Program-made: the position numbers and the translations under genes | Notes under the pieces: generated by a model | Seen by the model: only the letters and a program-made list of their open reading frames with translations | What the model was told of the DNA's origin: nothing | Database searches by the model: none | In this document: piece by piece, positions 113-20,826 of the stretch | Position numbering within the stretch: position 1 is the stretch's first letter | How the letters are laid out: every line of letters begins with the position of its first letter | Origin: Candidatus Gastranaerophilales bacterium | Lineage (GTDB): Bacteria; Cyanobacteriota; Vampirovibrionia; Gastranaerophilales; Gastranaerophilaceae | Assembly (NCBI GenBank): GCA_944326655.1 | Contig: CALVEX010000159.1 | Span: 1-23,413, forward strand | Length of the DNA: 23,413 nucleotides | Direction: 5' to 3'

Positions 113-3100
113 TTATTTTAACTGATATAAAGTACATGTCTTTGTAAATTTATCTTTATTTGTCCAGCCGCCGTACAGATCCATATAAATTTCATCACAA
201 TCTATATCGCCGAGAAAAGAAACTTGTCTTATTTCTTGTTGTAAATCAGAAATTGGAACATCATTATAAGACCCGCTCATATAAACCGGAGTATTTTCAA
301 CACCGGTAATTTCTTGAGAAACTTTTGCCGCATAATCAGCCATCGCAGATCTAACCTGTACTCCTGTCGCATTTGAAGGTTTATATTTGTTATTAATTTC
401 TATATTATCAATTATAAAAGCAGGTTTTCCATTGTCATCTTTGATAAAATAACACAGAGCATTTCCTATAGTTTTGCCGGAAGTATTATCAACAAGCTCT
501 ATCATATTATAGGCAGTATCCATCACAAAGTGAGGCATTGCAGATCCATTTCCGCCTCCCATACCTATACAACAGGTCGAGTAATTTCCCTGGAAAATAT
601 CTTTTTGCGGATTTCTGTCCCACATTTTTATTGTCAAATCAAGTTTTCTTTCGGATTTTCCTTCTTGTACTGACGAAATATCATCTAATCTTTGATTAAG
701 ATGCTCTAAAATAGTAAGTGTATTTCGAGGTGTCTGGGCTCTTTTAGGATCGGGATTTGCGGCATTTCCCTGTGCGCGTTTCCATACCTGAGCAAGCTGT
801 CCCTGTTCAGAAGTATCTGATAACATTTCAATAAGTTCTTTTAATTTATTTTTATTAGATAAATATTCTTTAGGTATAATAAACTCATCTCCTTTAATGA
901 ATTTAGGAAATTGTTTTTTCAAAAATCCTTTAACAGGAGTTTGCATTAACATATTTATATCTTCCGATACCTGAGCTGCTATTTGTTCTATATGTTCCGC
1001 ATTTTTATCTTTTGATACAAAATGAATTTCATGTTCTTTTGAGGGGTGTAACCATTTTTCATAATTTAAACCTGATGTCTCAAACATATTACGTGTGTTT
1101 TCATTTGCTATGCCATATATATTAGATGTATTGTGGATAAATTGATTAAAATCAGGTTCTAAAGAACCGGCTTTCATGATATCATTGAAAGATAAATCAT
1201 TGCCTGAATTTATTTCTTTTGAAAGCAAATGAATATAATTCATATCCCAAGACAATAATTTATCTTTGGGAATAGATGCGATTTGAGTATCAGTCAAACC
1301 TGAATTTTTCATTATTTGTTGGCATAAATCTGCATTCAACTGCCCTACATCAACTTTTCCCTGATCTATCATAGATTGTATGCCATCAAATGACATATTG
1401 TTTGCTTTATATGCAGTGATTAAATCTATAAATTCAATTTTTTGTGTAGGCATAAACGGTTTGTTGTCTGTATTGCAGGATTCCGACAGATTTTTTAACA
1501 AAGACATTTCATCCGGGGAAAAATCGCGTAAAATATCTATATACTCATCTGCATCATCAAATCTCATTCTCAATAAATGATTTACTGCTTCTTTGTCAAA
1601 AATTTCAGAAGCTGCCATTAAACAGCAATAATTACTATCAACAAATTCTTCTACTTCATCTCTTGCAAGTTCCGGGGTTTCAAATTCGCCATTGACATAC
1701 CATTCAGGATTTTTTAGCATTTTTTGTTTTAGAGCCTTTACCTTTGAATCCAGTTCTACTAAATCCTTATTTTTTAGCATTTTTAAAACATTATCATTAC
1801 GCGTCCAACAAATATCATCAATAAGAGGTTGAATACGCTCATTCGGGAAATCTGGATTGCGGCATAATTCTCTTACAATGTCTATAATATCCTTGCCTTT
1901 ATTTATGTGGCGCAATATACCTTCTATGTGTTCTTTCGGGAAATCTGGATTGTTGCACAATTCTCTTGCTAACTCTATATTGTCTTTATTTGTGCAACCC
2001 AATAATATACCTTCTATGTGTTCATTCGGGAAATCTGGATTGTTGCATAATTCTCTTGCAAGATTTATATTGTCTTTATTTGTGTAAGCCAATATACCTC
2101 TTATTTGCTTTTTCGGGAAATCTGGATTGTTGCACAATTCTCTTGCAAGGTCAATAATATCCTTGTCTTCATATATGTCGAACATTATACCTTTTATGTC
2201 CTCTTTCGGGAAGTCAGGATTGTTACACATTTTTCTTGCAATGTCTATATTATCTTTATCTGTGAATAACAATATACCACGTATGCGCTCTTTCGAGAAA
2301 TCGCCATTGTACATATCTTTTACAAGATCACGACGCTGATATGCATAATCCATATTATTTTTATCTGAGTAGAATAATATATCGCGCATGTATTCATTTG
2401 GAAAATCCGGATCATTGTATAATTCTCTTGCAAACTCTATGTTATCTTTATTTATGCAACCCAATATATCTTTTATTTGCTTTTTCGGAAAATCCGGATT
2501 GTTACACATTTTTCTTGCAATGTCTATAACATCCTTATCTCTACCTGCTAATAACAATATATCTTTTATTTGCTTTTTCGGGAAATCTGGATTGTTACAC
2601 ATTTCTCTTGCAAACTCTATATTATCCTTATGTGTGTAACCCAATATACCTTTTATGTGTTCATTCGGGAAATCTGGATTGTTACAAATTTCTCTTGCAA
2701 ACTCTATGTTATCCTTATGTGTGCAACCCAATATACCTTTTATGTGTTCTTTCGGGAAATCTGGATTGTTGCACAATTCTCTTGCAAGATCTATATTACC
2801 CTTATTTGTGAAGTCCAAAATATTATTAGCATACTCTCCGCCAATTCCTCTAGCCTTAAGTGTTTCAGCAAGCTCATCTTTCATCTTTGCAAATGTTTCA
2901 TCGTCTATCTCGATTTTTGCTGTTTCCGGTGCAGAAAGCTGTGCATGCTCGGGCACGTCTAATTCTTTGCCCTGCCGCGTAATAGGTGTCCCTTCATTCA
3001 TATCCGTTTTTATTTGTTCTCGTATAACTTCCTGTGTTTCCTGAGTTCTTCCCTGTGAAGCACCTGAAGATGTTTCCAATGATTGTTGCACTCTATGATT

Positions 3101-4978
3101 TTCTTCCGATTGTTTAGCAAAGATATTTGCCTGCGCTTGCTGAGGCGTTTCAGGATGGAAGGTCAGAGCTTCGGGAGCTCCTTCCACTTTGTAGCCCTTT
3201 GTTCCAAGTAACAATACGCTCAGTGCAAGTTCATTATCATTCTTTGCTGTTACTATTACTTCTCCGTTTCTAGTTAAGGTATAGGTCCCGTTTTCTTGTT
3301 TTTCTACATTTACGTTATTTAGTTTTGCACCCTTATGTATTGCAGAACCTGCAAACATCATTCCGTAGTTCATAAGTCCGTTTTGTGACAGGGATTCTTG
3401 TATTGTCATATCGCTTGTTAATCTGTCGAATATAACATCTGCTGTTGTTTCTGTCCCTGTTCCGATGATTTTGGGGATTATACTTTTAAATATTTGAGGA
3501 TTTTTTGACAGGATTTTTGCTACGCTGTCTCCTACAGGGCCTGAGACATATGCACCGAAGGCTCCGTACATCATGCCGTTTTTCAATTCTTCCCAGGCTT
3601 CTTGACCGGTTTGTTCTGTTATTCCTTTTTTGCTTGTTGCATCGCTTACTATTGTCACTGCAGGGTTAAATGCTGCAGTTGCTGTAGTTGCTATGCCTTT
3701 TACAGCGGCATTACTTACCATGGCACCTGCCTTTGTACCGAATTTTGCACTTGCTAGCTGCATTGCTTTGGAACCCAAGTTTTGCATGGCTGTTGAGCCC
3801 ATGGCAAAGTATGATGCTGCTATTGTTGTACCAATTTCGATTACGGCAGCCTGCGTCTTCATGTTAGAAATATATTCATTAATTATTTCTTCCGAGTTAT
3901 AATTTCCCATTGCCTGCTTGTATGCAGACTTGTATTCTTGCTCCAGTGTATTTTTGTCTAAAGAATGTATCTGAGAGTCATATTCATTTTTAGCATCTGT
4001 GAGGAAGCTTTTTAGTTCCTGAACGAATTTCTTATCATCATTTTGAGCAATACTATTTAATTGGGATACGTATTGTTGAGCAAGCTCTCTGTTGTTTCCG
4101 ACATGGGGTAAGATGTGGAGCATTGCTGCTTTTCTGACATTAACGGGGGCTGCATTATCTATGTTCGATAGAGTATTTGAAATATTATCTGATAGGTTTT
4201 GATATGCGTTTAGAGTTTGGAGGTTTGTATCTGCTTTCTGAAGATTTTGAAATGCCTGTTCATTATAATCTATACCATAGAGTTCTTTGAAATTTTTATT
4301 AAATTCTTCTGGATTGTTTGTCGTATTCTTAAGTCTGATAATCCCGCCTATTTCATTGCTGATTGCCTCTCCATTTTCCCAGACTGTAACAAAGTCGTTA
4401 CGGCCTGTTATTTTATCCCAGGTATAGTTGCCTATTGATTGAAGCCCCTGTTGAACGGCATCAAATGAAACTTTACCTATGCCGTTGTAGTAGTTTGTAA
4501 GGTTATCTCCGGCATTCCCTGCTTGTTGGAATAATTTATCAGCAGCGAAAGCTCTTGTTTGTTGGGATTGTTGTTCTAATAATTGTTCCTGGGAGAGATT
4601 TTGTTTTTGTTCAGTTTTTGAAGCGGAAATGGGAGATGGCTGTTGTTGAGTTTGATGATTATTTTGTTCTAGTGTGAGAGTAATATCATCCAGATATGTG
4701 CCGTTGTCATAAGTATCATATTTCCCAAAACTGAATCCATTGCCAAAGATAGAAGTAGAATTGAATCTGGAGTTGTATGAGTCCTGCCCTTCTTTTGTGC
4801 CAAAAGCCCATTCTTCGAATTCATCGCGGGACAGAATTCCGTTTGCAAGCATTTGTGCGGCAACATCATATTTTGACATATCTTTTTTTGATATATATTC
4901 ATTGCTTCTGAGTTGATCCAGGTGTGCCATAGCATAATCATCAATTTTTTTAGATATTGAATCGTTTGTTCCTGACAT
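113..4978 (-). CDS. Giant (1621 aa) multi-domain protein. The N-terminal region is Q/N-rich and polar. A Gly/Ala-rich hydrophobic segment follows (aa ~380-520). The central part has about 11-12 tandem 30-aa repeats (NIEFARELCNNPDFPKEHIKGILGCTHKD). The C-terminal ~250 aa domain is Cys-containing (QGNYSTCCIGMGGGNGSAMPHF...). No signal peptide. Candidate secreted effector, toxin or adhesin-like protein.
   Basis: Single uninterrupted 4866-nt ORF on the minus strand. ATG at 4978 is preceded by GAAGGAAG, with in-frame stops upstream. Plus-strand ORFs inside it are short, repeat-derived artefacts. Repeat periodicity is visible at both protein and nucleotide level. Confidence 0.8.
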   Translation of the reverse strand: MSGTNDSISKKIDDYAMAHLDQLRSNEYISKKDMSKYDVAAQMLANGILSRDEFEEWAFGTKEGQDSYNSRFNSTSIFGNGFSFGKYDTYDNGTYLDDITLTLEQNNHQTQQQPSPISASKTEQKQNLSQEQLLEQQSQQTRAFAADKLFQQAGNAGDNLTNYYNGIGKVSFDAVQQGLQSIGNYTWDKITGRNDFVTVWENGEAISNEIGGIIRLKNTTNNPEEFNKNFKELYGIDYNEQAFQNLQKADTNLQTLNAYQNLSDNISNTLSNIDNAAPVNVRKAAMLHILPHVGNNRELAQQYVSQLNSIAQNDDKKFVQELKSFLTDAKNEYDSQIHSLDKNTLEQEYKSAYKQAMGNYNSEEIINEYISNMKTQAAVIEIGTTIAASYFAMGSTAMQNLGSKAMQLASAKFGTKAGAMVSNAAVKGIATTATAAFNPAVTIVSDATSKKGITEQTGQEAWEELKNGMMYGAFGAYVSGPVGDSVAKILSKNPQIFKSIIPKIIGTGTETTADVIFDRLTSDMTIQESLSQNGLMNYGMMFAGSAIHKGAKLNNVNVEKQENGTYTLTRNGEVIVTAKNDNELALSVLLLGTKGYKVEGAPEALTFHPETPQQAQANIFAKQSEENHRVQQSLETSSGASQGRTQETQEVIREQIKTDMNEGTPITRQGKELDVPEHAQLSAPETAKIEIDDETFAKMKDELAETLKARGIGGEYANNILDFTNKGNIDLARELCNNPDFPKEHIKGILGCTHKDNIEFAREICNNPDFPNEHIKGILGYTHKDNIEFAREMCNNPDFPKKQIKDILLLAGRDKDVIDIARKMCNNPDFPKKQIKDILGCINKDNIEFARELYNDPDFPNEYMRDILFYSDKNNMDYAYQRRDLVKDMYNGDFSKERIRGILLFTDKDNIDIARKMCNNPDFPKEDIKGIMFDIYEDKDIIDLARELCNNPDFPKKQIRGILAYTNKDNINLARELCNNPDFPNEHIEGILLGCTNKDNIELARELCNNPDFPKEHIEGILRHINKGKDIIDIVRELCRNPDFPNERIQPLIDDICWTRNDNVLKMLKNKDLVELDSKVKALKQKMLKNPEWYVNGEFETPELARDEVEEFVDSNYCCLMAASEIFDKEAVNHLLRMRFDDADEYIDILRDFSPDEMSLLKNLSESCNTDNKPFMPTQKIEFIDLITAYKANNMSFDGIQSMIDQGKVDVGQLNADLCQQIMKNSGLTDTQIASIPKDKLLSWDMNYIHLLSKEINSGNDLSFNDIMKAGSLEPDFNQFIHNTSNIYGIANENTRNMFETSGLNYEKWLHPSKEHEIHFVSKDKNAEHIEQIAAQVSEDINMLMQTPVKGFLKKQFPKFIKGDEFIIPKEYLSNKNKLKELIEMLSDTSEQGQLAQVWKRAQGNAANPDPKRAQTPRNTLTILEHLNQRLDDISSVQEGKSERKLDLTIKMWDRNPQKDIFQGNYSTCCIGMGGGNGSAMPHFVMDTAYNMIELVDNTSGKTIGNALCYFIKDDNGKPAFIIDNIEINNKYKPSNATGVQVRSAMADYAAKVSQEITGVENTPVYMSGSYNDVPISDLQQEIRQVSFLGDIDCDEIYMDLYGGWTNKDKFTKTCTLYQLK
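1840..2840 (-). repeat. Tandem ~90-bp (30-codon) repeat array inside the giant CDS, about 11-12 units with high unit-to-unit nucleotide identity.
   Basis: The string ttcgggaaatctggattgtt[g/a]cacaattctcttgcaa recurs at ~1843, 1936, 2026, 2113, 2206, 2293, 2400, 2485, 2576, 2666 and 2753 (period 87-93 bp). The translated unit is ...ARELCNNPDFPKEHIKGILGCTHKDNIEF... Confidence 0.85.
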
Positions 4979-5222
4979 TCGATACTTCCTTCTACTTTTT
5001 TGTGTAAGACTTAGAATGTTTGCAATAAATTTATCGGCACTTTTTCTTTGTTCTTTAACTCCTCGACTCTCCTAATGTAATGCTATCAGCCGGAATGACT
5101 GTCTATTTGCTATTTTTACGTGTTTGTATAAATTTCGTTATACTTCTTTAGATTTGTAATTTTATTTATAATCCAAGCAATGTGTTGAACATTTATAATT
5201 CATAGTGATAGTAGTTTATTGA

Positions 5223-5233
5223 GGGGGGGGGGG
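5223..5233. repeat. Homopolymeric G11 tract (C11 on the sense strand of the giant gene), ~245 nt upstream of its ATG. Candidate slipped-strand phase-variation tract.
   Basis: Printed sequence ttgag + 11 g + atttc. The sense-strand context AAGAGGA..TTTTGTT..ATGG..(23 nt)..C11 resembles the uORF/poly-C module of the pilin cassettes (AAGAGGAG TTTTGTT ATGG ..28 nt.. C10). Confidence 0.6.
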
Positions 5234-5331
5234 ATTTCTACAATTATTTATTCCATCGAAAACAAAAATTTCCTCTTACAGGTGATTAAGTATCGTTTGT
5301 TCAGAAGTTTTCAATGCGAGGGCAAAAGCTA

Positions 5332-5760
5332 TTAATTTTCTTGGTTCTGTTCATTCTGTTGTTCAATAAGTTGTTTTTCATATTCCATGCGGGCTTTAAC
5401 TTTTATTTCATGCTTTTCTCCGTGGTGGGGTTCTTCACGCTTGTAACGTTGATCTACCCACCATTTTGCCATATGGTACACAACTCCTTTTTTTACAGGT
5501 TTGGGCTCTGAATATTCGGAAGTTTCCGGGTTAATTTTTTTTGGCCTGCGTTTTATCTTTGTTTTTAGAGGTTTGTCCAAATCATCTATTTTTAATTTCG
5601 GAGACGGGGCAATATCCATATAATCATTTAAATCAGCTTCATTCACCGCATAACTTTCAGGACTTACATAGCCCTCTTCTGCGTATGCACAAGGGATAAG
5701 AATAGAAAGAACCGACATCAGTATTAATATTTTTAAATCTTTTTTACATATAACTACCAT
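5332..5760 (-). CDS. Small secreted lysine-rich hypothetical protein (142 aa) with an N-terminal signal peptide (MVVICKKDLKILILMSVLSILIPCAYA/EEG).
   Basis: ORF with a positive n-region, hydrophobic h-region and AYA-E cleavage motif. K/E/P-rich mature part. No obvious SD, so the start is uncertain (an alternative Met lies 14 codons in). Confidence 0.45.
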   Translation of the reverse strand: MVVICKKDLKILILMSVLSILIPCAYAEEGYVSPESYAVNEADLNDYMDIAPSPKLKIDDLDKPLKTKIKRRPKKINPETSEYSEPKPVKKGVVYHMAKWWVDQRYKREEPHHGEKHEIKVKARMEYEKQLIEQQNEQNQEN

Positions 5761-5857
5761 AATTCTATTTTACACAAAAAATCTGCGGAAACAAAATTGA
5801 TAAAGCTGCGTCAAAAATATTAAATGTGTGACAATTTTTAGAAGATGAGGGATGTAA

Positions 5858-6823
5858 ATGGCTGTAATTAAGTATGAGGAAGATTTATATAAAGATTTTC
5901 AATCGGGTGTAAAAGAAGAAGAGCTTGAATTTATTGATATTGACGATGAAGAAGATGAACCTAAGACATTTAATTCAATATCGAATGATGATGATATTCT
6001 GCAAATGTATTTGAAAGATATCGGTAAGGTTAAACTTTTAAATTCTAAAGAAGAAAAAGCTCTGGGCAAACAAATTAAAGAGGGGAAAAAATCTCAGGCT
6101 GAAATTGCTAAAAGAAAGCTTGTACAAGCAAACCTGAGGCTTGTGGTAAGTATCGCGAAAAAATACATAGGCCAGGGTGTTCTTTTTATGGATCTTGTAC
6201 AGGAAGGGTCTTTAGGGTTGATTAAGGCTGCGGAAAAATTCGATTATTCAAAGAATTTCAAATTTTCAACTTATGCAACCTGGTGGATAAAACAGACAAT
6301 AATCAGGGCAATTTCAAATAATTCCCGAACAATCCGTATTCCTGTTCACATGACTGATAAAATAAGAAAATATAAAAAAACATACACAACTTTATCATTT
6401 GAACTCGGTCGTGAGCCATCTGATTTAGAGATTGCTGAACGTTTAGGGATTACTCTGAAACAGCTTTTGACAATAAAAAAATCGATTATTAAAGAGCCGA
6501 TAAGCTTGGAAACTCCGGTTACAGATGATTTGAATATAGGAGATTATATAGAAGACAAATCATACAGGTCTCCTGAAATCCAAACAAAAAATAATGTATT
6601 GAAAGGCAGTATTGAAAACCTTTTGTCAACTCTTCCCGAGCGGGAGAAGAAAATAATAAGCTGCCGTTTCGGAATAAACGGAGAAGTTCCGAAAACACTT
6701 GAACAATTGGGTGAAATAATGGGTTATTCAAAAGAGAGGATAAGGCAGTTAGAGGATTCCGCATTATCAAAAATCAGAGAGCGTAAGGAATTACAACATT
6801 TCAGGGATTTTATAGAGGATTGA
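5858..6823 (+). CDS. rpoD: RNA polymerase sigma-70 family factor (RpoD/SigA-like, 321 aa) with regions 1.2, 2.1-2.4, 3 and 4 recognisable.
   Basis: Region 2 signature [41 protein letters not shown]. Region 4 helix-turn-helix [27 protein letters not shown]. Start ATG preceded by GAGGGATG. Hairpin terminator follows. Confidence 0.9.
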
Positions 6824-6829
6824 TTGTAT

Positions 6830-6858
6830 GTGAAGGATGCTTTTGCATCCTTTTTATT
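6830..6858 (+). terminator. Rho-independent terminator of the sigma-factor gene (GGATGC-TTTT-GCATCC followed by a T run).
   Basis: Perfect 6-bp stem followed by TTTTTATTTTATT immediately after the stop codon. Confidence 0.6.
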
Positions 6859-6895
6859 TTATTCAATAAGTATTATCGAAAGTTGTAAATAGGCA

Positions 6896-6930
6896 AAAAG
6901 ACAGAGCATTATAACTCTGTCTTTTAAATC
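6896..6930 (-). terminator. Rho-independent terminator for the minus-strand SPFH/recN operon (GACAGAG-loop-CTCTGTC, T-run on the minus strand).
   Basis: Sequence aaaagacagagcattataactctgtcttttaaa lies 15-50 nt downstream of the stop of the 6947..8233 CDS. Confidence 0.5.
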
Positions 6931-6946
6931 TGTTTTTATAAATATA

Positions 6947-8233
6947 TTATACTAAGTTATTCTTTATAACCGGCTGTGCTTCTTTGTTTGCGCAGAGTAT
7001 AACCAGAAGGTTATTGACCATTTTTGCTTTCTCAAGTTCATCAAGTTGTACAATATTATTTTTGCTGAGTCTGTTAAGCGCCATTTCAACCATTCCTACG
7101 GCACCTTCAACGATTGTATTTTTTGCATCAACAACAGCAGCGGCCTGTTGCCTTTGAAGCATTGCTGCTGCAATTTCAGGTGCATAGGCAAGGTGGGTAA
7201 TTTTTGCATCAACAACATTTATCCCTGCAACTTTTACATTTCGTTGAATTTCCGCTTTTAGTTTAGTTGAAATTTCGGCGCTGTCCCCTCTTAATGATTG
7301 GATATTAGTGTTTTCTGGTGCATCATAAGGATACATTCTGACAATTGTTCTTAAAGCTGAATCACTTTGTGCCGAAATAAATGTTTTGTAATCATTTACG
7401 TTGAATATTGCCTTTGCAGTATCCTGAACTTCCCATATTACAATAATTCCTACTTCTATTGGGTTTCCGAGTTCATCGTTAATTTTTTGTTTACCGTTAT
7501 CTAGAGTCATTGCTTTCAGTGAAATCGGTACAAATGGGGTAACACTTTGTGCAAGCGGGTTTACATAATGAAAACCTGCTCCTCGCAGCGTTCCGATATA
7601 TTTTCCGAAAACTGTCAAAACCAGCGCTTCTTGAGGTTTAAGGATTTTAAATCCCATACCGGTTATAACAAACAATATGACTAAAAGAGGTAAAAGCCAC
7701 ATCGCACTGCCTACAACAGCTATTATATATACAAAAAAGGCTATAAAAAGCATCATAAACAATACGAGAAAGCCCGGAAGTGATGCTGCACGCTTTTCTT
7801 TTTCTTTGCTCTGGATTTCAATTTCAGGGTATTCAATTTCAGGTTCTTGTTTCCCTTTGCAGTATCTTGTTATGAAAATTAAATTGTCCATAAGAGGGGG
7901 AGTTTTTTGCATAAAAAGCCCGAAAAATTTTGATAATTCCCCGTTATCAAACAATATACTGTTGCAGTCTCTGCATTTATCCACAATAATCCCGTTAAAA
8001 TAAACTTTTTCCATAGGTTTTGCGCAGGCTGGACAGGGTCTTGCTGCTTCTTTTACTTTTACTGCCTGCATATCTACAGGATTGATAATCTGTGTTTTTA
8101 AAGCCAGCATTTCTCCAAGTTTTTGTAGTGTTGGAAAAGACAGCCATGCTGCTTTACAATTTTTGCAGTATTGAAATTTAATACCATTGTGTTCAATTAC
8201 ATCAAATTCTGCGCCGCATTTCGTACAATTCAT
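6947..8233 (-). CDS. SPFH/band-7 (stomatin/prohibitin/flotillin-like) membrane protein with two N-terminal CxxC...CxxC zinc-ribbon modules and a triple-TM segment (428 aa from the RBS-supported ATG).
   Basis: The C-terminal 250 aa match the SPFH fold (LVLTVFGKYIGTLRGAGFHYVNP...EIAAAMLQRQQAAAVVDA). N-terminus is MNCTKCGAEF...YCKNCKAAW and CPACAKPM...CRDCNSILFDNGEL. The ATG at 8233 is preceded by AGGAGGGAACAA. The longer track ORF (to 8311) would overlap recN. Confidence 0.85.
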   Translation of the reverse strand: MNCTKCGAEFDVIEHNGIKFQYCKNCKAAWLSFPTLQKLGEMLALKTQIINPVDMQAVKVKEAARPCPACAKPMEKVYFNGIIVDKCRDCNSILFDNGELSKFFGLFMQKTPPLMDNLIFITRYCKGKQEPEIEYPEIEIQSKEKEKRAASLPGFLVLFMMLFIAFFVYIIAVVGSAMWLLPLLVILFVITGMGFKILKPQEALVLTVFGKYIGTLRGAGFHYVNPLAQSVTPFVPISLKAMTLDNGKQKINDELGNPIEVGIIVIWEVQDTAKAIFNVNDYKTFISAQSDSALRTIVRMYPYDAPENTNIQSLRGDSAEISTKLKAEIQRNVKVAGINVVDAKITHLAYAPEIAAAMLQRQQAAAVVDAKNTIVEGAVGMVEMALNRLSKNNIVQLDELEKAKMVNNLLVILCANKEAQPVIKNNLV

Positions 8234-8249
8234 TTGTTCCCTCCTATTC

Positions 8250-9902
8250 TTAATATGATACAAGCGATTTTGCAAATTCCATAGACTGCTTGTTAATCTC
8301 TCCGCCGGCAAGTTCCGCTAATGCCTTAATTCTGTTTTCTCCGTTCAAAACATATACTTCTACTTTTGTTTCATCGCTTTGAGATTTTCTGACGTAAAAA
8401 TGTTTGTCCGCCCGCGATGCAATTATCGGCTGGTGCGTAATTAATATTATCTGATGATATTTAGAAAGCTCTGCTATTTCATCAGCAACGCTTTGTGATG
8501 CTTTACCTGAAATCCCTGTATCGATTTCATCAAAAATTACGGTATTTATATCATCGCTTTGTGCAAAAATTGATTTTATTGCAAGCATTACGCGGGAAAT
8601 TTCTCCGCCTGACGCAACTTTTGCAAGCGGTTTTAAATCCTCTGATACATTTGTTGATATCAAAAATTCAACATTATCAATTCCGTCAGTATTTAATTCT
8701 TTCGGCTGAACAGAAATTTCAAATCTTGCTTTCGGAAGCTCCAGTTTTTCAAGTTTTTCCTGAATTAACACAGATAAGACCTGTGCATAATTTTTTCTGT
8801 TTTCGCTGATTTCTGACGCGGATTTTTCCAATTCAGCCCGTGTGAGTTTAATTTTTTCTTCTAATTCTTCAATATTTTGTGTTGAAAACTCTATTGCATT
8901 TAACTCTTTTGACAGATTGTCAAAAGTTTCCATTATTGATTGAAGCGTTCCGCCGTATTTGCGTTTAAGCTTATCCAGTAAAAATAATCTTTCCTGAATT
9001 TGGTTTAGTCTTTCGGTGTCATTATCAAGATTTTGGCTGTAATTTCTAAGCTCACTGCCTATATCTCTTAAGTTTTCTACTGTTTCTATTAAATTTTGTT
9101 CAATTTCTTCAAGCTTTGTATCGTATGATGCCGCTTTTGATACATTTTGTTTAATTTTTCCGAGAGCTTCAAGAATTGAACCCTCGTCGCCGTTAATTGC
9201 CCAGTATGAAGTGCCTGTCAGTTCTTTTAATTTTTCGGCATTTTCTAAAACTTCAAGTTCTTTTATAAGTTCTTCATCTTCACAGTCCGATGTTATATTT
9301 GCGCTTTCTATTTCGTTTACCTGAAATTGTAAAAATTCAATCTGGCTTTCTGTTGCATTGGAGGCTGTTTTTAAACTCTCTAATTGAGATTGAAGATGCT
9401 GGTATTCTTTAAATTTCTCTTTGTATGTATTAAGTTTTTCGCCGTAGGAGTCTTTTGCGTAGTTGTCTAAAAGCGTAATATGGTATTTAGGCTGCATAAA
9501 AGCATAGGTCTGGTGCTGGGAATGTATATCAAGAAAATAGTTTTTAAGCTGTTTTATAAATTCCTGATTAACCAGAGTCCCGTTTACTCTTGAACGGACT
9601 GAATTTTGCGTAATTTCTTTTGACAGGACAATTTCTGTGCCGAAATTGTCAACACCGTTTTCTTCAAATAACCGGCTCAGGTCATGTCTGGTATTTTCGA
9701 TTACAAGTTCAATAACGGCTTTTTCTTTCCCATGCTTTATCACTTCTTTTGAAACACGTGGGGCAAAAGCAATATCTATTGCGTTAATCAGTATGCTTTT
9801 ACCCGCACCTGTTTCGCCTGTTATGACATTTAGGCCTTTATCAAAATTAGCTGTTAATTCATCAATCAGTATATAGTCTTTTATCCTGAGCTGTTTTATC
9901 AT
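8250..9902 (-). CDS. recN: DNA repair protein RecN (SMC-like ATPase).
   Basis: N-terminal Walker A (VITGETGAGKSILINAIDIAF), long coiled-coil middle and C-terminal signature/Walker B (GGEISRVMLAIKSIF...VIFDEIDTGISG). Start taken at the ATG (MIKQLRIK...) that aligns with RecN N-termini. The track ORF begins 6 codons earlier at a TTG. Confidence 0.9.
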   Translation of the reverse strand: MIKQLRIKDYILIDELTANFDKGLNVITGETGAGKSILINAIDIAFAPRVSKEVIKHGKEKAVIELVIENTRHDLSRLFEENGVDNFGTEIVLSKEITQNSVRSRVNGTLVNQEFIKQLKNYFLDIHSQHQTYAFMQPKYHITLLDNYAKDSYGEKLNTYKEKFKEYQHLQSQLESLKTASNATESQIEFLQFQVNEIESANITSDCEDEELIKELEVLENAEKLKELTGTSYWAINGDEGSILEALGKIKQNVSKAASYDTKLEEIEQNLIETVENLRDIGSELRNYSQNLDNDTERLNQIQERLFLLDKLKRKYGGTLQSIMETFDNLSKELNAIEFSTQNIEELEEKIKLTRAELEKSASEISENRKNYAQVLSVLIQEKLEKLELPKARFEISVQPKELNTDGIDNVEFLISTNVSEDLKPLAKVASGGEISRVMLAIKSIFAQSDDINTVIFDEIDTGISGKASQSVADEIAELSKYHQIILITHQPIIASRADKHFYVRKSQSDETKVEVYVLNGENRIKALAELAGGEINKQSMEFAKSLVSY

Positions 9903-9941
9903 ATTTATAGCATAAAACAATATTAAATTTTGGGCAATAGT

Positions 9942-11177
9942 TTAAAAAGGGTAATCATCTTTTATCTGCCATCCGTCACGCATAATTTTTGCAGCGCATG
10001 TGTATCCGCCGGATACTGCTTTAGCGTTGCAAGCCCAGGATGCTGTACTATTAATAGTGTTATCAGGCCAATCGTATCCGTAAGGTTTTAACATTTTGTC
10101 AGCCAGAATAAAGAAAAACAAATCCTTTCCTGCAACATTTGGTCCTTTATCAGAACCATTTATATCAATAAAAAATGCTGCATTATTTATTGATGTTGAA
10201 TAGAGTCCAATACAGACACCGTCTACGGTTTTAAAAGATGCAGTCCCCGGATTTATGGGGGAGGAGAGCCAGACTCCTGTCAACCATTCATACTGTGTAT
10301 TTTCATAAAACATTTTCCCGTTATAACACATATTTTCTGCATAGTCTCCGGGCGGATATGTTTTATCAATTTTAAATTCCGGTGCCAAATAATTATTAAC
10401 TATTTTTTCGGGGGAATTCCAATCCTGCCAGTTTTCCATTTCTCCATGTTTAATTTCTGCCATTATAATGGCCTGATTTGTCAGTGTGTAAGCTCGTTTT
10501 AATTTTGTAACAGTTTCATCCTTTTGATGTTTTGTAATTAATGTTGGTAAAGTCATCGCCGCAACCACGCCGATTATGCCGAGGGTGATTAGGACTTCTG
10601 CGAGTGTAAATGCGGCTCGACGTTGACCGTTCAGCAGGACTACGCGCGTAGCGCCATCTGCGATGGTAAAGGTAGCAAGTTTTTTCTTAAGTGAAGAAGT
10701 TAATAAGTCAATAGGTGAATAAGTTCGTTTCAGGGAATTGATATAGTCCCCTCTCCCCGGCGAATTGACCTTCGCGCGGGAGAGTACTCTTATACTCTTC
10801 CCTCTCCCCCTGCGGGAGAGGGTTAGGGTGAGGGGTGTTTGTTTGAAACCCATCCTAACCTTCCCTAATAAGGGAAGGAATTCTATGTCCCCTCCCTTGA
10901 GGGGAGGGGAATACAAGGGGAGGGTGATGCTCTTAAGTGAATAAGTTAATAGGTCAATAAGTGAATAAGTTCTTATCGGCAGCGTACCGCTGCAAAAGAT
11001 TACCGAGGAAATTTCACTATTATGCGATTGCGACGGTCGTTTCACACGCTGGCAATGACACGTATCTTGTGAGCTTTGCTCACAGATACCGGCATACCTT
11101 ATTACCCTCCTATCTTCCGATCTTCCATTAATGGCCTGCCCTCCTGCCTTCTTGAACTCTTGCCTTCTGTTTGTCAC
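9942..11177 (-). CDS. Prepilin-type (type IV pilin-like / pseudopilin-like) protein, paralog 1. The class-III signal motif AAFTLAEVLITLGIIGVVAAMTLP lies at codon ~189 of an open frame that starts at GTG 11177. The C-terminal ~220 aa globular part has the DINGSDKGPNVAGKDLFFF motif. The true 5' end is unresolved (see findings).
   Basis: Canonical FTLxE + hydrophobic helix. There is no in-frame ATG/GTG/TTG within 60 codons upstream of the motif. The frame stays open for ~188 codons back to a GTG whose UG overlaps the UGA stop of an RBS-equipped upstream ORF. Paralogous to 14013..15209. Confidence 0.6.
   Translation of the reverse strand: MTNRRQEFKKAGGQAINGRSEDRRVIRYAGICEQSSQDTCHCQRVKRPSQSHNSEISSVIFCSGTLPIRTYSLIDLLTYSLKSITLPLYSPPLKGGDIEFLPLLGKVRMGFKQTPLTLTLSRRGRGKSIRVLSRAKVNSPGRGDYINSLKRTYSPIDLLTSSLKKKLATFTIADGATRVVLLNGQRRAAFTLAEVLITLGIIGVVAAMTLPTLITKHQKDETVTKLKRAYTLTNQAIIMAEIKHGEMENWQDWNSPEKIVNNYLAPEFKIDKTYPPGDYAENMCYNGKMFYENTQYEWLTGVWLSSPINPGTASFKTVDGVCIGLYSTSINNAAFFIDINGSDKGPNVAGKDLFFFILADKMLKPYGYDWPDNTINSTASWACNAKAVSGGYTCAAKIMRDGWQIKDDYPF
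10688..11170 (-). repeat. Conserved hairpin-rich upstream cassette of pilin paralog 1 (shared with paralog 2 and partly with 23001..23330). It contains four polypyrimidine-loop-polypurine hairpins (10749-10785, 10800-10822, 10859-10878, 10889-10908) bracketed by a ~45-bp direct repeat (10690-10735 and 10925-10972, cttaagtgaataagttaataggtcaataagtgaataagttc). It also contains the palindrome TGTGAGCTTTGCTCACA (11068-11084).
   Basis: Direct sequence comparison with 14750-15205 (modules are nearly identical, with mosaic indels). Confidence 0.75.
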
Positions 11178-11221
11178 GCTTTCGGGGGGGGGGCGATTCT
11201 CAGCTTCTTATCTTTAACCAT
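11174..11221 (-). CDS. Upstream ORF of pilin paralog 1 encoding MVKDKKLRIAPPPKA (15 codons). It contains the C10 tract (encoding APPP). Its UGA stop overlaps the GUG start of the long pilin frame (gcGUGAca).
   Basis: AAGAGGAG-N7-ATG on the minus strand. The 10-G tract is confirmed independently by the plus-strand track ORF 11076..11297 (..CHAFGGGAILSF..). One extra C fuses this ATG in frame with the 9942..11177 frame. Confidence 0.5.
   Translation of the reverse strand: MVKDKKLRIAPPPKA
11184..11193. repeat. Homopolymeric G10 (C10 on the sense strand) inside the upstream ORF of pilin paralog 1. Candidate phase-variation tract.
   Basis: ttc + 10 g + cgatt, read directly from the sequence. Confidence 0.8.
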
Positions 11222-11255
11222 AACAAAACTCCTCTTAATTTCCAATAACATTTTT

Positions 11256-11284
11256 ATTATTTATGATTTTTCAGGTTTTGTCAA
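11256..11284 (-). promoter_or_regulatory. Sigma70-like promoter for pilin paralog 1 (TTGACA-N17-AATAAT), ~55 nt upstream of the upstream-ORF ATG.
   Basis: Minus strand reads tatTGACAaaacctgaaaaatcataAATAATaaaaatg. A perfect -35 hexamer. Confidence 0.45.
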
Positions 11285-11375
11285 TACGAATAATTAATTA
11301 AAAATTAATTTCAATGACTTTTGAAAAAATAACGTTAAAATGAAAATATAAGTTATTTGAAATGGAGTTTTAATT

Positions 11376-14012: not shown

Positions 14013-15209
14013 TTACGGATTAATACATTGCCAGTAAGTTTTTGATGTATCTGTTTCACATGTGTTTAAAATTGCCCATTTTGCACATGTGAAACCCTGG
14101 TAATGTTCTTTCTCAGATGTAAAACAGCCCCCAAAGCGTGTATATGGTACTACGTTGTTATTTTTGTCTATGTTGAATGAAAATAAATCGTGTCCCAGAC
14201 GGTTAGGTCCTTTGGCCGGGCCGTTGATATCAATGTGATACCCTCTCGCTCCCCAAGGACTCATAAATATAAGAATACCACTATTAGTTAAAATAGATTT
14301 TTGAGTAAGTGAGTCCGCGTCTATATGTGCATATGTCCCTTTAACAAAAGAGTCATAACTTTTTTCCCTGCGCCCTGTGCAGTCTAAGTAATATTTTGTG
14401 CACAGTTGAGCATTTGGTATATACTTTATAAGTTTGTCTAAATGATTTGAATATGCTGTTCTCATATCAGATTCAGAATTTAAATCTTCATACAGCATCG
14501 GATAATCATTCTGCATAAGCAGATGAGCATTTTGAATTAATGAATAAGCTTTTTTGAACTGTGTTTCCAAAACATGCCGTTTGTAATTTGTAATAACCAC
14601 AGGTAAAGTCATCGCCGCAACCACTCCGATAATTCCGAGGGTGATGAGGACCTCTGCCAATGTAAACGCGGCCTGACGTTGACCATTCGGCATGGCTACG
14701 CGCGTAGCGCACTCAGCCAAAGTGAATGCAGGTATCAACTGAACGCGTTCCATGTCCCCTCCCTTGAGGGGAGGGGAATTCAAGGGGAGGGTGATGCTCT
14801 TAAGTGAATAAGTTAATAAGTCAATAGGTGAATAAGTTCGTTTCGAGAAGGTGTTCTGCCTCTCTTTGGAAAACTCTTGTTCAAATATTTTAAAGTTTAA
14901 TAAATATTGTGGCAGAGGGCGAAAAAGAGGGTTGGGGTGAGGTTCTATTATGTTCTGCGATTGCGACGGTCGTTCCACTCCCTCGCAATGACATGTATTT
15001 TGTGAGCTTTGCTCACCGATTTCAGCATACCCTCCTACCTTCCTATCTTCCAATCTTCCTGAATCAGCCCTCTCTCTAACTATCTCCCGAGGAGAGAAAA
15101 CGCGTTTCAACTTCCTTATACAGGAAAGGAAGTTATTTTTACGCGGGCTCTGCCCGCCGATAATAGCCTGACCTCCTGCCTTCTTGCCCTCCTGACTTCT
15201 TTTTGTCAC
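14013..15209 (-). CDS. Prepilin-type (type IV pilin-like) protein, paralog 2. MPNGQRQAAFTLAEVLITLGIIGVVAAMTLP lies at codon 173, with an in-frame ATG at 14693 just before the motif. The C-terminal part has the DINGPAKGPNRLGHDLFSF motif. The frame is open back to a GTG near 15209 that is coupled to an upstream ORF, as in paralog 1.
   Basis: Same architecture as 9942..11177. The stop codon abuts the clpB stop (convergent, zero spacer). A partial duplicate FTLAE motif (IPAFTLAECATRVAMPNGQRQAAFTLAEV) is present. Confidence 0.65.
   Translation of the reverse strand: MTKRSQEGKKAGGQAIIGGQSPRKNNFLSCIRKLKRVFSPREIVRERADSGRLEDRKVGGYAEIGEQSSQNTCHCEGVERPSQSQNIIEPHPNPLFRPLPQYLLNFKIFEQEFSKERQNTFSKRTYSPIDLLTYSLKSITLPLNSPPLKGGDMERVQLIPAFTLAECATRVAMPNGQRQAAFTLAEVLITLGIIGVVAAMTLPVVITNYKRHVLETQFKKAYSLIQNAHLLMQNDYPMLYEDLNSESDMRTAYSNHLDKLIKYIPNAQLCTKYYLDCTGRREKSYDSFVKGTYAHIDADSLTQKSILTNSGILIFMSPWGARGYHIDINGPAKGPNRLGHDLFSFNIDKNNNVVPYTRFGGCFTSEKEHYQGFTCAKWAILNTCETDTSKTYWQCINP
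14750..15205 (-). repeat. Conserved hairpin-rich upstream cassette of pilin paralog 2. It contains hairpin 14766-14785 (cccctccc-ttga-ggggaggg), hairpins 15083-15095 and 15111-15132, the gaataagt module 14797-14850 and the palindrome TGTGAGCTTTGCTCAC (15001-15016).
   Basis: Module-by-module similarity to 10688-11170. An additional ~140-nt segment is absent from paralog 1. Confidence 0.75.
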
Positions 15210-15253
15210 GCTTTCGGGGGGGGGGCGATTCTCAGCTTCTTATCTTTTTTCAT
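15206..15253 (-). CDS. Upstream ORF of pilin paralog 2 (MKKDKKLRIAPPPKA if the tract is C10). It has the same RBS, poly-C tract and UGA/GUG overlap as paralog 1.
   Basis: AAAAGGAG-N7-ATG on the minus strand. The 3' coordinate depends on the tract length (9 as I read the printed line; 10 implied by the frame of the supplied ORF 14013..15209). Confidence 0.4.
   Translation of the reverse strand: MKKDKKLRIAPPPKA
15217..15225. repeat. Homopolymeric G tract (9-10 nt) inside the upstream ORF of pilin paralog 2.
   Basis: I read gctttc + 9 g + cgatt. The adjacent block reads cctgcccttcttg. The ORF-track translation MTKRSQEGKKAGG requires cctgccttcttg instead, so the G run is most probably 10 and one of my two run counts is off by one. 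Confidence 0.6.
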
Positions 15254-15287
15254 AACAAAACTCCTTTTAATTTCCAATAACATATTT

Positions 15288-15317
15288 ATTATGAGCCAAT
15301 TTAATAGTATTTGTCAA
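15288..15317 (-). promoter_or_regulatory. Sigma70-like promoter for pilin paralog 2 (TTGACA-N18-CATAAT), positionally equivalent to the promoter of paralog 1.
   Basis: Minus strand reads ggaTTGACAaatactattaaattggctCATAATaaatatg. Confidence 0.45.
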
Positions 15318-15531
15318 TCCTTTTCATACGTATTGTTTATTACCGTTTCTTGTGTTCTGTCTTTATAAAAATCTAACCGTCTGCTGCCTTTTTCTTGTTC
15401 TTCGTGTAAATCCGTTCCAGATCAAAGTTATTTAAGTCTTTATATATCCAGGAATTTTGAATTTTAATATTTCCATCATCGGTTAATTCATTAATGGTAA
15501 TTTACCCTGGTTGATTTTCTATTTTATATCT

Positions 15532-19066: not shown

Positions 19067-19158
19067 AATTGTATTTGTAAAAAACGTATGTAACTCCCCT
19101 AGTATAGTGAAACGGAACATACTTCAAAATTTCACCATGATAATTGAATATTTAAAAA

Positions 19159-19231
19159 GCCGATGTAGCTCAGTTGGTAGAGCAACTCATTCGTAATGAG
19201 TAGGTCAAGGGTTCGAGTCCCTTTATCGGCT
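19159..19231 (+). tRNA. tRNA-Thr (anticodon CGT), 73 nt, CCA not encoded.
   Basis: Manual cloverleaf. Acceptor gccgatg/tatcggc (one G-U pair). D arm tagctcagttggtagagc. Anticodon stem actca/tgagt with loop ttCGTaa. T arm aaggg-ttcgagt-ccctt. Discriminator t. Confidence 0.85.
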
Positions 19232-19458
19232 TGGTTATAAAATTATGATAAAATCCGCTGTCGTGAAAATAAAAAAAGTAAATAATTTTGATAATTCCTA
19301 TATCGAAGATGAATTGGCTAAATTATATAGGGATATAGTTCGTTGGGCTGTTGTTGATGTAGATGAAGCGGACATTTCCATAAGCGTTTCTTACCTAACG
19401 TAATATATATTAATACAATATTTGCTTTTGAAAGTTTTTGGTTGTACACTGTTTCTTA

Positions 19459-19551
19459 ATGGATTGGCCGGGTCGGAATTAAAAACCTTACCGGCCGGAT
19501 TGACGGTGATAGGTTCGCCGGATCCTAAATACAAATTAAGGAGAATTTAAA
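19459..19551 (+). promoter_or_regulatory. GC-rich structured 5' leader of metK. Hairpin GGCCGG-loop-CCGGCC (19465-19495) whose loop (aaCCTTAcc) is complementary to the SD region (atTAAGGag). Candidate pseudoknot-type SAM-responsive element of unassigned class.
   Basis: Stem and loop/SD complementarity read directly. The leader does not match the SAM-I core (no GAGGGA...GGCAACC...). Confidence 0.3.
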
Positions 19552-20826
19552 ATGACACCAAGAAACTTTTTATTCACTTCCGAATCAGTTACGGAAGGAC
19601 ACCCCGACAAAGTCTGCGATCAGATTTCAGACGCAATTTTGGATGAGTTTTTGACAAAATACCCTCAGGCGCGTGTAGCAGCTGAAACTACTGTTACCAC
19701 TGGTATGGCGCTTGTCTGCGGGGAAATTACTGCTGATTGTTATGTTGATATTCCTTCAGTTGTAAGAAATACGATTAAAAATATCGGCTACAACGGAACA
19801 CAAGGCGGCGGTTTTGATTACAAAACCTGTGCCGTTTTGACAAGTATTGATGAACAGTCTTGCGACATTGCGGGCGGTGTAAACAAAGCTTTTGAAACAA
19901 GAAATAACAACGCTGATACTTCAACTTCTGAAACTGAAAATATCGGCGCAGGCGATCAGGGAATTATGTTTGGTTACGCCTGTAACGAAACACCTGAATT
20001 AATGCCTTTGCCTATCAGTTTGGCTCATAAATTATCATATAGATTAGCTCAGGTAAGAAAACAGGGAATTTTAAACTACCTCAGACCGGATGGCAAATCT
20101 CAGGTTACTGTTGAATATGTTGACGGAAAACCTTCTAGAATTCATACAATTCTTATTTCAACACAACATGATCCTGAAATTAACGGTGAATGTGATAACA
20201 GCAAAGTTCAGGAAATTATTAAAAGAGATATTACCGCATACGTAATTGATGAGGTTTTTGCGCACGAAACTATTAAAATTGATAGTGAAACAAAAATTCT
20301 TGTAAACCCGTCAGGAAGATTCGTTGTAGGCGGGCCTCAAGGGGATGCCGGATTGACCGGACGTAAAATTATTGTTGATACTTACGGTGGTTATTCTCGC
20401 CACGGCGGCGGTGCTTTTTCGGGAAAAGATCCTACAAAAGTTGACAGATCTGCTGCTTATGCCGCAAGATGGGTTGCTAAAAATGTTGTAGCTTCAGGTT
20501 TAGCAGAAAAATGCGAAATCGAACTTGCTTATGCAATCGGTGTTGCAGAACCTGTTTCAATCTTGGTTGATACTTTTGGCACAGGTAAAATTTCCGATGA
20601 TGAAATATCTGCTTTAGTATCTAAAAACTTTGATTTAAGACCTGCATCAATTATTAATCAGTTTGACCTTCGCGGGCTGCCTGCTAAAAACGGCGGTAAA
20701 TTCTATCAATTACTTGCCGCATACGGTCATATGGGAAGAACTGATATTGATGTTCCGTGGGAAAGAACAGATAAGGCCGACGCTTTGAAATCTCAGGCTT
20801 GCGGCTGCTGTTCCTGCTCAAAATAA
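19552..20826 (+). CDS. metK: S-adenosylmethionine synthetase with an unusual Cys-rich C-terminal tail (...[11 protein letters not shown]).
   Basis: Conserved MetK blocks ([51 protein letters not shown]). RBS AAGGAGAATTTAAA-ATG. Confidence 0.97.

Follow-up and report, generated by a model that had tools for sequence, protein, structure and literature searches.

A Lineage-Restricted Modular Protein of Gastranaerophilales with a Predicted GNAT-Type Domain, a 29-Residue Helical Repeat and a Shared N-Terminal Domain

The Locus and the 1621-Residue Protein

Gastranaerophilales, a non-photosynthetic group related to the Cyanobacteria, are common but uncultured inhabitants of the human and animal gut, and their interactions with the host and with other microbes are almost unknown. 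The DNA considered here, called the window, is a stretch of 23,413 nucleotides (nt) from one of these bacteria, and it carries a giant gene on the minus strand encoding a protein of 1621 amino acids (aa). A preliminary description, made from the letters of the DNA, had placed a protein of this length at positions 113-4978, and a complete open reading frame (ORF) starting with ATG is found there; an identical protein is present in the protein record (P0027). The protein consists of a lineage-specific N-terminal domain (N-domain), a linker, a tandem array of helical repeats, an all-helical domain and a C-terminal domain predicted to adopt the fold of GNAT enzymes (acyl-CoA N-acyltransferases). 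These parts are listed below from the start of the gene to its end, with the evidence for most of them in brackets.

113..4978, minus strand: complete ORF of 1621 aa, ATG start, stop codon at 113-115 (ORF call and translation)
3161..4978, minus strand: N-domain, aa 1-606, a lineage-specific family (homologues with differing C-terminal parts)
3299..3856, minus strand: Gly/Ala/Thr-rich conserved core of the N-domain, aa 375-560 (alignment of 42 sequences)
2912..3160, minus strand: Glu/Thr/Gln-rich linker, aa ~607-689, predicted to be disordered (AlphaFold local confidence, pLDDT, below 35; no secondary structure; unconserved)
1808..2806, minus strand: 11 tandem repeat units, aa 725-1057, consensus nKDNIdlARElCNNPDFPkehIkgILgyt (Tandem Repeats Finder, hidden Markov model of the unit, AlphaFold)
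674..1798, minus strand: all-helical domain of ~360 aa, aa 1061-1435, always N-terminal to the GNAT-fold domain in the family (conserved in 161 or more proteins; confident AlphaFold model)
116..673, minus strand: C-terminal alpha/beta domain with a predicted GNAT fold, aa 1436-1621
569..592, minus strand: QGNYSTCC motif, aa 1463-1470, in the predicted alpha1-alpha2 region, with Q, G, S, C and C invariant

The whole protein gave no match above threshold in Pfam, NCBIfam, PHROGs, PADLOC or the PDB sequences, and weak matches to Sec7, SHOCT and VMAP-M0 were taken as chance; in particular, Pfam and NCBIfam returned no domain for aa 1-700. As the preliminary description had stated, there is no Sec-type signal peptide, the N-terminus being hydrophilic. 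The named homologues and all 16 loci encoding an N-domain come from "Candidatus Gastranaerophilales" or from gut metagenome-assembled genomes. Neither half of the protein has a tblastn match in 50,697 phage records or a relative in IMG/VR; plasmids were not searched. No relevant work on repeats, effectors, GNATs or polymorphic toxins of Gastranaerophilales or Melainabacteria came up in searches of the literature.

The C-Terminal Module and Its Family

The prediction of structure for the repeat region and the C-terminal part, which the preliminary description had proposed as a check, was carried out, and for the C-terminal module the model is confident. The AlphaFold model of aa 1061-1621, built on an alignment of 80 sequences, has a pLDDT of 93.6 and a predicted template modelling score (pTM) of 0.80, and consists of the helical domain followed by the alpha/beta domain. 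The elements of the latter follow the GNAT order beta1-alpha1-alpha2-beta2-beta3-beta4-alpha3-beta5-alpha4-beta6-beta7, apart from alpha4, which is not predicted, and the top ranks of the Foldseek comparison, an independent one, are occupied by AtaT and AAC(3), with probabilities up to 1.00 (AtaT) and weak E-values. No papain or transglutaminase fold appears in the lists of structural matches, and the domain is predicted to have a GNAT-type fold rather than a protease fold. For the helical domain, neither structure nor sequence comparison with the PDB gave a match. A segment reading TIKMWD that matched WD40 repeats in the profile searches of the PDB was rejected as trivial.

Conservation is concentrated in the GNAT-fold domain, which holds 21 of the 23 columns that are invariant in the 80-sequence alignment, the remaining two (N1292 and W1309) being in the helical domain. 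The alpha1-alpha2 segment contributes W1453, R1455, P1457, D1460, Q1463, G1464, S1467, C1469 and C1470, and the bulge of beta4 contributes D1524, N1525 and E1527; N1572 and D1573 follow beta5, Y1598 and D1600 belong to the last strands, and I1493, E1494, G1505, N1506 and L1508 complete the set. These columns hold down to 34% overall identity, and a separate alignment of the GNAT-fold domain alone gives 27 invariant columns. The position of QGNYSTCC in alpha1-alpha2 and of D1524, N1525 and E1527 on beta4 is given by the order of the secondary-structure elements and not by the model coordinates. In GNATs, the alpha1-alpha2 segment forms the acceptor site and the beta4 bulge is, in many members, the place of the general base.

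The preliminary description had pointed to FQGNYSTCCIGMGG in this domain, which is present and contains QGNYSTCC, and had seen in it the core of a papain-like or transglutaminase-like enzyme. The spacing that suggested this idea is genuine, Gln-x5-Cys-Cys (Q1463, C1469, C1470) being invariant in all 80 homologues; the enzyme class does not follow, as no invariant or near-invariant His occurs anywhere in the domain and the His of the "PHF" segment varies.

The module is the mark of a large chromosomal family. A word-indexed search of 5.8 billion clusters with aa ~1075-1621 matched 161 protein clusters, in whose complete members the module stands at or near the C-terminus, and most carriers are 650-980 aa long. 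Free-standing members such as P0046, P0104 and P0112 have diverged 29-aa repeats directly N-terminal to the module, and P0046 aligns to aa 822-1620 of the window protein at 48% identity. Two module genes occur in tandem in L020/L021. In P0088, a canonical Pfam GNAT domain (PF00583, E 2.4e-12, residues 525-640) is appended after the module, so that two domains of acyltransferase fold stand in tandem; this protein bears the name "GNAT family" because of the appended domain and not because of the module itself. An hhalign comparison with the same canonical domain aligned its beta3-beta4 with IGNALCYF..FIIDNI in a sensible register, at a probability of 0.4%, which is not significant.

Some further features of the free-standing proteins can be recorded. 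In some free-standing members (P0038, residues ~150-430) a different tandem repeat of ~40 aa (GREAIEYLxxFKxGDxPRFDxYxIxxLVxxAQTQK) replaces the 29-aa repeat before the same helical and GNAT module. Many of the free-standing proteins P0036-P0153, together with ORFs of 547 and 561 aa lying upstream of the gene in L005, L009 and L011, start with M[KQ]I... and have, 15-65 residues in, a motif of the type [VIL]SF[KSG]G, xNFKG or NICY[RKQ]PxF[TS]; they have no classical signal peptide, and the short motif may serve the lineage as a signal of its own for targeting or processing at the N-terminus.

The 29-Residue Repeat Array

The tandem array that the preliminary description had reported as 11-12 repeats of 30 residues consists of 11 units, most of them 29 aa long (range 28-36 aa). 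Tandem Repeats Finder detects a period of 87 nt, with 10.6 copies and 69% matches, at window 1837-2812, and each unit scores 45-66 bits against a hidden Markov model built from the units. The motif [C/Y/R]N[ND]PDFP is present in 10 of the 11 units, the remaining one being degenerate (NGDFS). The Cys, thought at first to be invariant along with the PDFP turn, occurs in nine of the 11 units, and in relatives the position is taken by Val, Ile or Cys; the consensus of the whole family is nKDNldfARELvxNKDFPkexIxxvLxyt.

The array is real, and it gains or loses units between near-identical strains. An artefact of assembly, which had been named as a possible refutation, is ruled out by the divergence of the units, which are 56-89% identical in DNA (leaving aside unit 6, which is out of register) with a longest exact internal repeat of 45 nt, and by L002, a separate assembly from another sample. 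The L002 gene (protein P0001) is 98.3-99.3% identical to that of the window across the gene and its 3' flank and has exactly one 87-nt unit fewer (aa 753-781), plus three substitutions. The number of repeats also differs among more distant relatives, as the preliminary description had proposed to check.

Each unit is modelled as two helices of ~9 residues, and the array is predicted with moderate confidence to form an alpha-hairpin solenoid, which agrees with the regular solenoid first suspected; the model of aa 1-1060 has an overall pLDDT of 54.5, with values of 50-87 in the repeat region. With this model, Foldseek returned generic ARM/HEAT and designed helical repeat proteins only, and these weak matches (E >= 0.009) are not taken as a family assignment. 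It had also been stated that the repeat fits none of several familiar classes, and indeed no Pfam repeat was matched and a period of 29 aa fits none of the catalogued classes compared (ankyrin, TPR, Sel1, LRR, HEAT/ARM, pentapeptide and PPR). Weak matches to Sec7, YozE_SAM_like, Nas2_N and UBA were discarded, since they fall on no single stretch and differ from relative to relative. A search for homologues by the repeat region alone recovered one protein, the selection of candidates by shared words probably failing on repeats. At the level of sequence the repeat is classed as a new family, and its predicted structure is of an ordinary kind.

The N-Domain

The N-domain is 38-75% identical to the N-termini of ~20 very large proteins (P0002-P0018, L003-L017) that differ in the rest of their length. 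An exhaustive HMMER search of 1.84 billion representative proteins found 80 relatives, and a scan of genomes found one N-domain locus per genome in 16 genomes; Pfam and the PDB, the latter also by profile search, gave no match to the domain. Most relatives carry an HD phosphohydrolase head (P0002, P0005, P0008, L006, L009, L011 and L012), and other heads are an ABC1 kinase-like domain in P0016 and a PRTase-CE domain in P0185. The combination with the repeat-helical-GNAT module is limited to the window protein with its near-identical counterpart P0001, to P0003 and to L017.

A separable helical module of ~100 aa stands at the start of the N-domain, which also contains a helical region and, at aa ~100-160, a linker rich in Gln. 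Its best-conserved part is the block at aa 375-560 (14.5% Ala and 10.2% Gly), in which the invariant residues of the 42-sequence alignment cluster (P481, G483, E510, D514 and G544) and for which the AlphaFold pLDDT is below 50. The preliminary description had taken this Gly/Ala-rich block for a possible membrane-interaction or translocation segment: the block exists, and a transmembrane anchor in it was rejected, as the Kyte-Doolittle maximum of 1.2 (19-aa window) is too low against the usual transmembrane threshold of ~1.6.

The module of aa 1-110 (window 4649-4978, minus strand) also begins ~20 otherwise unrelated proteins of 150-880 aa (P0207-P0231). The distant N-domain relatives P0182 and P0185 show weak, sub-threshold EF-hand matches at their own N-termini.

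Chimeric and Probable Accessory Character

The sequence comparisons show that the protein is a chimera of two families restricted to Gastranaerophilales, one defined by the N-domain and the other by the repeat-helical-GNAT unit. P0002 is 59% identical to the window protein over aa 1-984 (75% in the N-domain), after which its chain runs on into an HD domain, and aa ~720-1621 of the window protein make up a complete repeat, helical domain and GNAT-fold unit that also exists as free-standing, multi-copy genes. The C-terminal module shares 55-62% identity with free-standing members, against only ~31% with the modules that occur in other N-domain proteins. The similarities of the P0002 type and of the free-standing type overlap in the 29-aa array, and therefore the junction is placed within the array. 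The simplest reading is that recombination in the shared repeats swapped an HD-type tail for a repeat-helical-GNAT tail.

The comparison with L004, a congeneric genome, points to an accessory character of the gene. In L004, GlmS and MetK are 95% and 94% identical to those of the window and, with the hexapeptide transferase (range 89-95%), lie in the same order, and the N-domain gene is 43% identical to that of the window and has an HD head. This gene is not syntenic between the two genomes: in L004 it lies, together with a pilin-like gene with a poly-C leader, in a 6.4-kilobase segment between tRNA-Thr(CGT) and metK (4654-11260), and in the window tRNA-Thr and metK are adjacent (19158-19552), the site of the L004 segment being empty at 19232-19552. 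The difference looks like an island-like insertion, or a loss, beside a tRNA gene.

Neighbouring Genes and the Poly-G Tracts

The neighbours of the giant gene are of housekeeping type, and no secretion-system genes were found near it. The other genes of the window encode a sigma-70 factor, an SPFH/zinc-ribbon protein, a RecN-like ATPase, ClpB, an M48 peptidase, GlmS, tRNA-Thr, MetK, a YibE/F protein and two prepilin-like proteins; tRNA-Thr was the only match of an Rfam scan of the window. Directly upstream of the giant gene lies a 142-aa ORF (5332-5760, minus strand) whose N-terminus resembles a signal peptide (LILMSVLSILIPCAYA) and whose tail is rich in Lys and Glu; Pfam gave no match to it, and it was not seen beside relatives of the giant gene.

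Three tracts of 10-11 G are present in the window, at 5223-5233, 11184-11193 and 15216-15225. The last two belong, in minus-strand sense, to a conserved element (11150-11290 and 15182-15322, minus strand) composed of a sigma-70-like promoter, a ribosome-binding site and a mini-ORF of 15 codons, M(V/K)KDKKLRIAPPPKA, in which the C10 tract encodes Pro-Pro-Pro and whose stop codon overlaps the GTG start of the long ORFs 9942-11177 and 14013-15209, which contain prepilin motifs. The same element, with its C10 kept, precedes the pilin-like gene of L004 (5595-5735, minus strand). With a -1 or +2 change in the C10 tract, the mini-ORF and the long ORF would be joined into one frame, and the element could be a slipped-strand switch or a polyproline leader dependent on EF-P. 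In the two long ORFs (minus strand) the prepilin N-methylation motif (AFTLAEVLITLGIIGVVAA) comes only at aa ~180-209. The ~540 nt before it have an improbable translation and repeated segments (...RTYSPIDLLTYSLKSITLPL[YN]SPPLKGGD...), which points to a long 5' leader, structured or repetitive, more than to coding sequence; at the gathering threshold, Rfam found nothing in this stretch.

The remaining tract lies upstream of the giant gene.

5223..5233, no strand assigned: tract of 11 G, read as C11 in the coding sense and placed 245 nt before the ATG, a degenerate copy of the promoter, ribosome-binding site and poly-Pro mini-ORF element

This tract, which the preliminary description had counted among the signs of a variable gene, aligns to the leader element, and the best -35-like hexamer follows ~35 nt downstream of it. 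In this copy the mini-ORF is interrupted (ATG GAA TAA) and the -35 box is lost; the tract therefore appears to be a decayed copy of the pilin-gene leader and does not in itself indicate that the giant gene is phase-variable. The only other assembly, L002 with the near-identical gene, breaks here, its contig starting ~20 nt after the position of the tract.

Proposed Function and Alternatives

The giant gene is best interpreted, with moderate confidence, as encoding a modular, lineage-restricted and fast-evolving accessory enzyme of Gastranaerophilales that uses acyl-CoA-type transfer. This is the most likely interpretation, a purely intracellular role comes next, and an interbacterial toxin linked to an immunity protein is unlikely. 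In the proposed mechanism, the C-terminal domain would be, on the strength of its predicted fold, an active acyl-group transferase with an acyl-CoA-type donor, because its invariant residues sit where GNATs bind the acceptor and catalyse the transfer. The helical domain and the alpha-solenoid would select or hold a macromolecular target, and the N-domain would serve as a shared targeting or anchoring module which the lineage combines with HD, ABC1 kinase, PRTase-CE or GNAT heads.

Several observations weigh against this interpretation. Pfam, searched at E-values up to 10 with 18 members of the GNAT-fold domain, returned no acetyltransferase family, and profile searches of the PDB, with the C-terminal module and with the GNAT-fold domain alone, returned no GNAT match. 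In GNATs, motif A (Q/R-x-x-G-x-G/A), at the junction of beta4 and alpha3, binds the pyrophosphate of coenzyme A (CoA); in the family studied here it is replaced by KPSxxxG (consensus IEINNSxKPSxExG), which is one residue longer and lacks the first Gly. Helix alpha4 is not predicted. With no profile link to GNATs, motif A replaced and alpha4 not predicted, the use of CoA is therefore read from the fold alone. Furthermore, the placement of the invariant residues in the active-site cleft depends on the order of the secondary-structure elements, the model of the N-terminal and repeat regions is of low confidence (pLDDT 54.5), and a single N-domain per genome would fit a housekeeping role as well.

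The nearest competitor, rather less probable, is an intracellular protein that is never exported, i.e., a membrane- or envelope-associated scaffold enzyme in which the GNAT-fold domain modifies an endogenous protein or metabolite and the N-domain is a housekeeping platform for alternative enzymes. The single N-domain copy in each of the 16 genomes, the housekeeping neighbours, the lack of an export signal and of an immunity gene, and the size and chromosomal location of the repeat-helical-GNAT family are all in keeping with it. However, the N-domain is only 43% identical between congeners whose housekeeping proteins are 94-95% identical, its locus is not syntenic between them, and its enzymatic head differs between species, which is unusual for a housekeeping role.

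A bolder proposal, which we regard as speculative and improbable, is that the ~600-aa N-domain delivers or anchors the proteins of an effector system not yet described, with swappable heads (HD, kinase, PRTase and GNAT) directed against host cells, competitors or phages, in which the GNAT family would be a new acyltransferase clade with a catalytic Cys-Cys and the 29-aa arrays would shuffle the heads. Within this proposal, the Cys-Cys pair may act through an acyl-cysteine intermediate, which would be unusual for the GNAT fold.

As for the variable, exported protein (effector, toxin or adhesin) envisaged in the preliminary description, the repeat count does vary, and export is no more than possible. 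A polymorphic interbacterial toxin is a somewhat weaker candidate still and should be considered unlikely. In this reading the conserved N-terminal part would export the protein, the C-terminal domains would be toxic and a cognate immunity protein would be encoded; the GNAT-fold domain would then resemble AtaT or TacT, toxins that acetylate aminoacyl-tRNA and that are among the structural matches. The constant N-domain with interchangeable heads (HD, ABC1, PRTase-CE and GNAT), the quick divergence and different locus in L004, and the PRTase-CE head of P0185, a domain described in conflict systems, speak for a toxin. Against this, the gene downstream of the L002 copy is a convergent GrpB gene, and no small co-directional gene was found there or at nine other loci; no LXG, PAAR, Rhs, TPS or MafB trafficking domain was found in the Pfam and NCBIfam scans of the protein, nearby secretion genes and a signal peptide are lacking, and no orphan toxin cassettes were seen.

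Two alternatives concern the C-terminal domain. It is very improbable that this is a catalytically dead binding module in a protein that is merely a scaffold or an adhesin-like repeat protein: a degenerate motif A, the missing alpha4 and the lack of any match to a GNAT profile speak for it, but the many columns that stay invariant down to 34% identity include polar and charged residues (D, N, E, Q, S, C, C, N, D, Y, D) on cleft-forming elements, a pattern typical of active sites. Finally, a papain-like or transglutaminase-like cysteine enzyme occupying the C-terminal 250 aa, in which the catalytic Cys would follow the Gln at a distance of six residues and His and Asp would come further on, shares with papain the spacing of Q19 and C25, and with the His variable and the fold predicted to be GNAT-like it can hardly be sustained.

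The locus reveals an expanded and uncatalogued enzyme family (161 clusters matched by the C-terminal module) whose GNAT fold is visible through structure prediction alone, and it adds a new 29-residue helical repeat and a shared N-terminal module recombined with enzymatic heads. Should the N-domain be a targeting device, these proteins would offer a first view of the effector repertoire of the non-photosynthetic relatives of Cyanobacteria; otherwise, many "hypothetical proteins" could be annotated as GNAT-fold enzymes, and their mis-annotation as cysteine proteases would be avoided.

Comparison with Known Systems

The closest structural likeness is with the GNAT superfamily, which includes NatD/Naa40, RimI, the aminoglycoside AACs and the toxins AtaT and TacT: the C-terminal domain of the window protein has the beta4 bulge followed by a long alpha3 and, like many GNATs with a general base there, acidic residues on beta4. 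In contrast, its sequence identity to the top 60 structural matches is 4-13%, profiles of neither Pfam nor the PDB match it, motif A has KPSxxxG in place of Q/RxxGxG/A, alpha4 is not predicted, and a helical domain of ~360 aa without known relatives always precedes it. To our knowledge, no described GNAT family has the segment W.R.P..D..QG..S.CC that is invariant here in alpha1-alpha2.

Papain-like and transglutaminase-like cysteine enzymes share with the domain the Gln six residues before an invariant Cys, but they have another fold, and the window domain has neither a conserved His nor a Cys-His-Asp/Asn triad. The repeat array resembles the ARM/HEAT-type alpha-solenoids (importins, beta-catenin and designed helical repeat proteins) in that tandem helical units are piled into an elongated solenoid; its unit, at 29 aa, is made of two short helices and a DFP turn that is conserved, against 33-47 aa in ankyrin, TPR, Sel1, ARM and HEAT repeats, no profile matches, and the confidence of the model is moderate.

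Polymorphic toxins (reportedly described by Zhang et al. 2012) and polyvalent conflict proteins (Iyer et al. 2017, PMC5512222) are similar in combining a conserved N-terminal region and exchangeable heads with rapid divergence and variable genomic position, whereas the window protein has no recognised trafficking domain or immunity gene, its N-domain occurs once per genome (16 genomes), and no relative was found in the phage and IMG/VR collections searched. With respect to all these systems, what is new at this locus is a sequence-orphan GNAT clade with an invariant Cys-Cys pair, so assigned from its predicted fold, together with a 29-aa solenoid repeat and a lineage-specific carrier domain.

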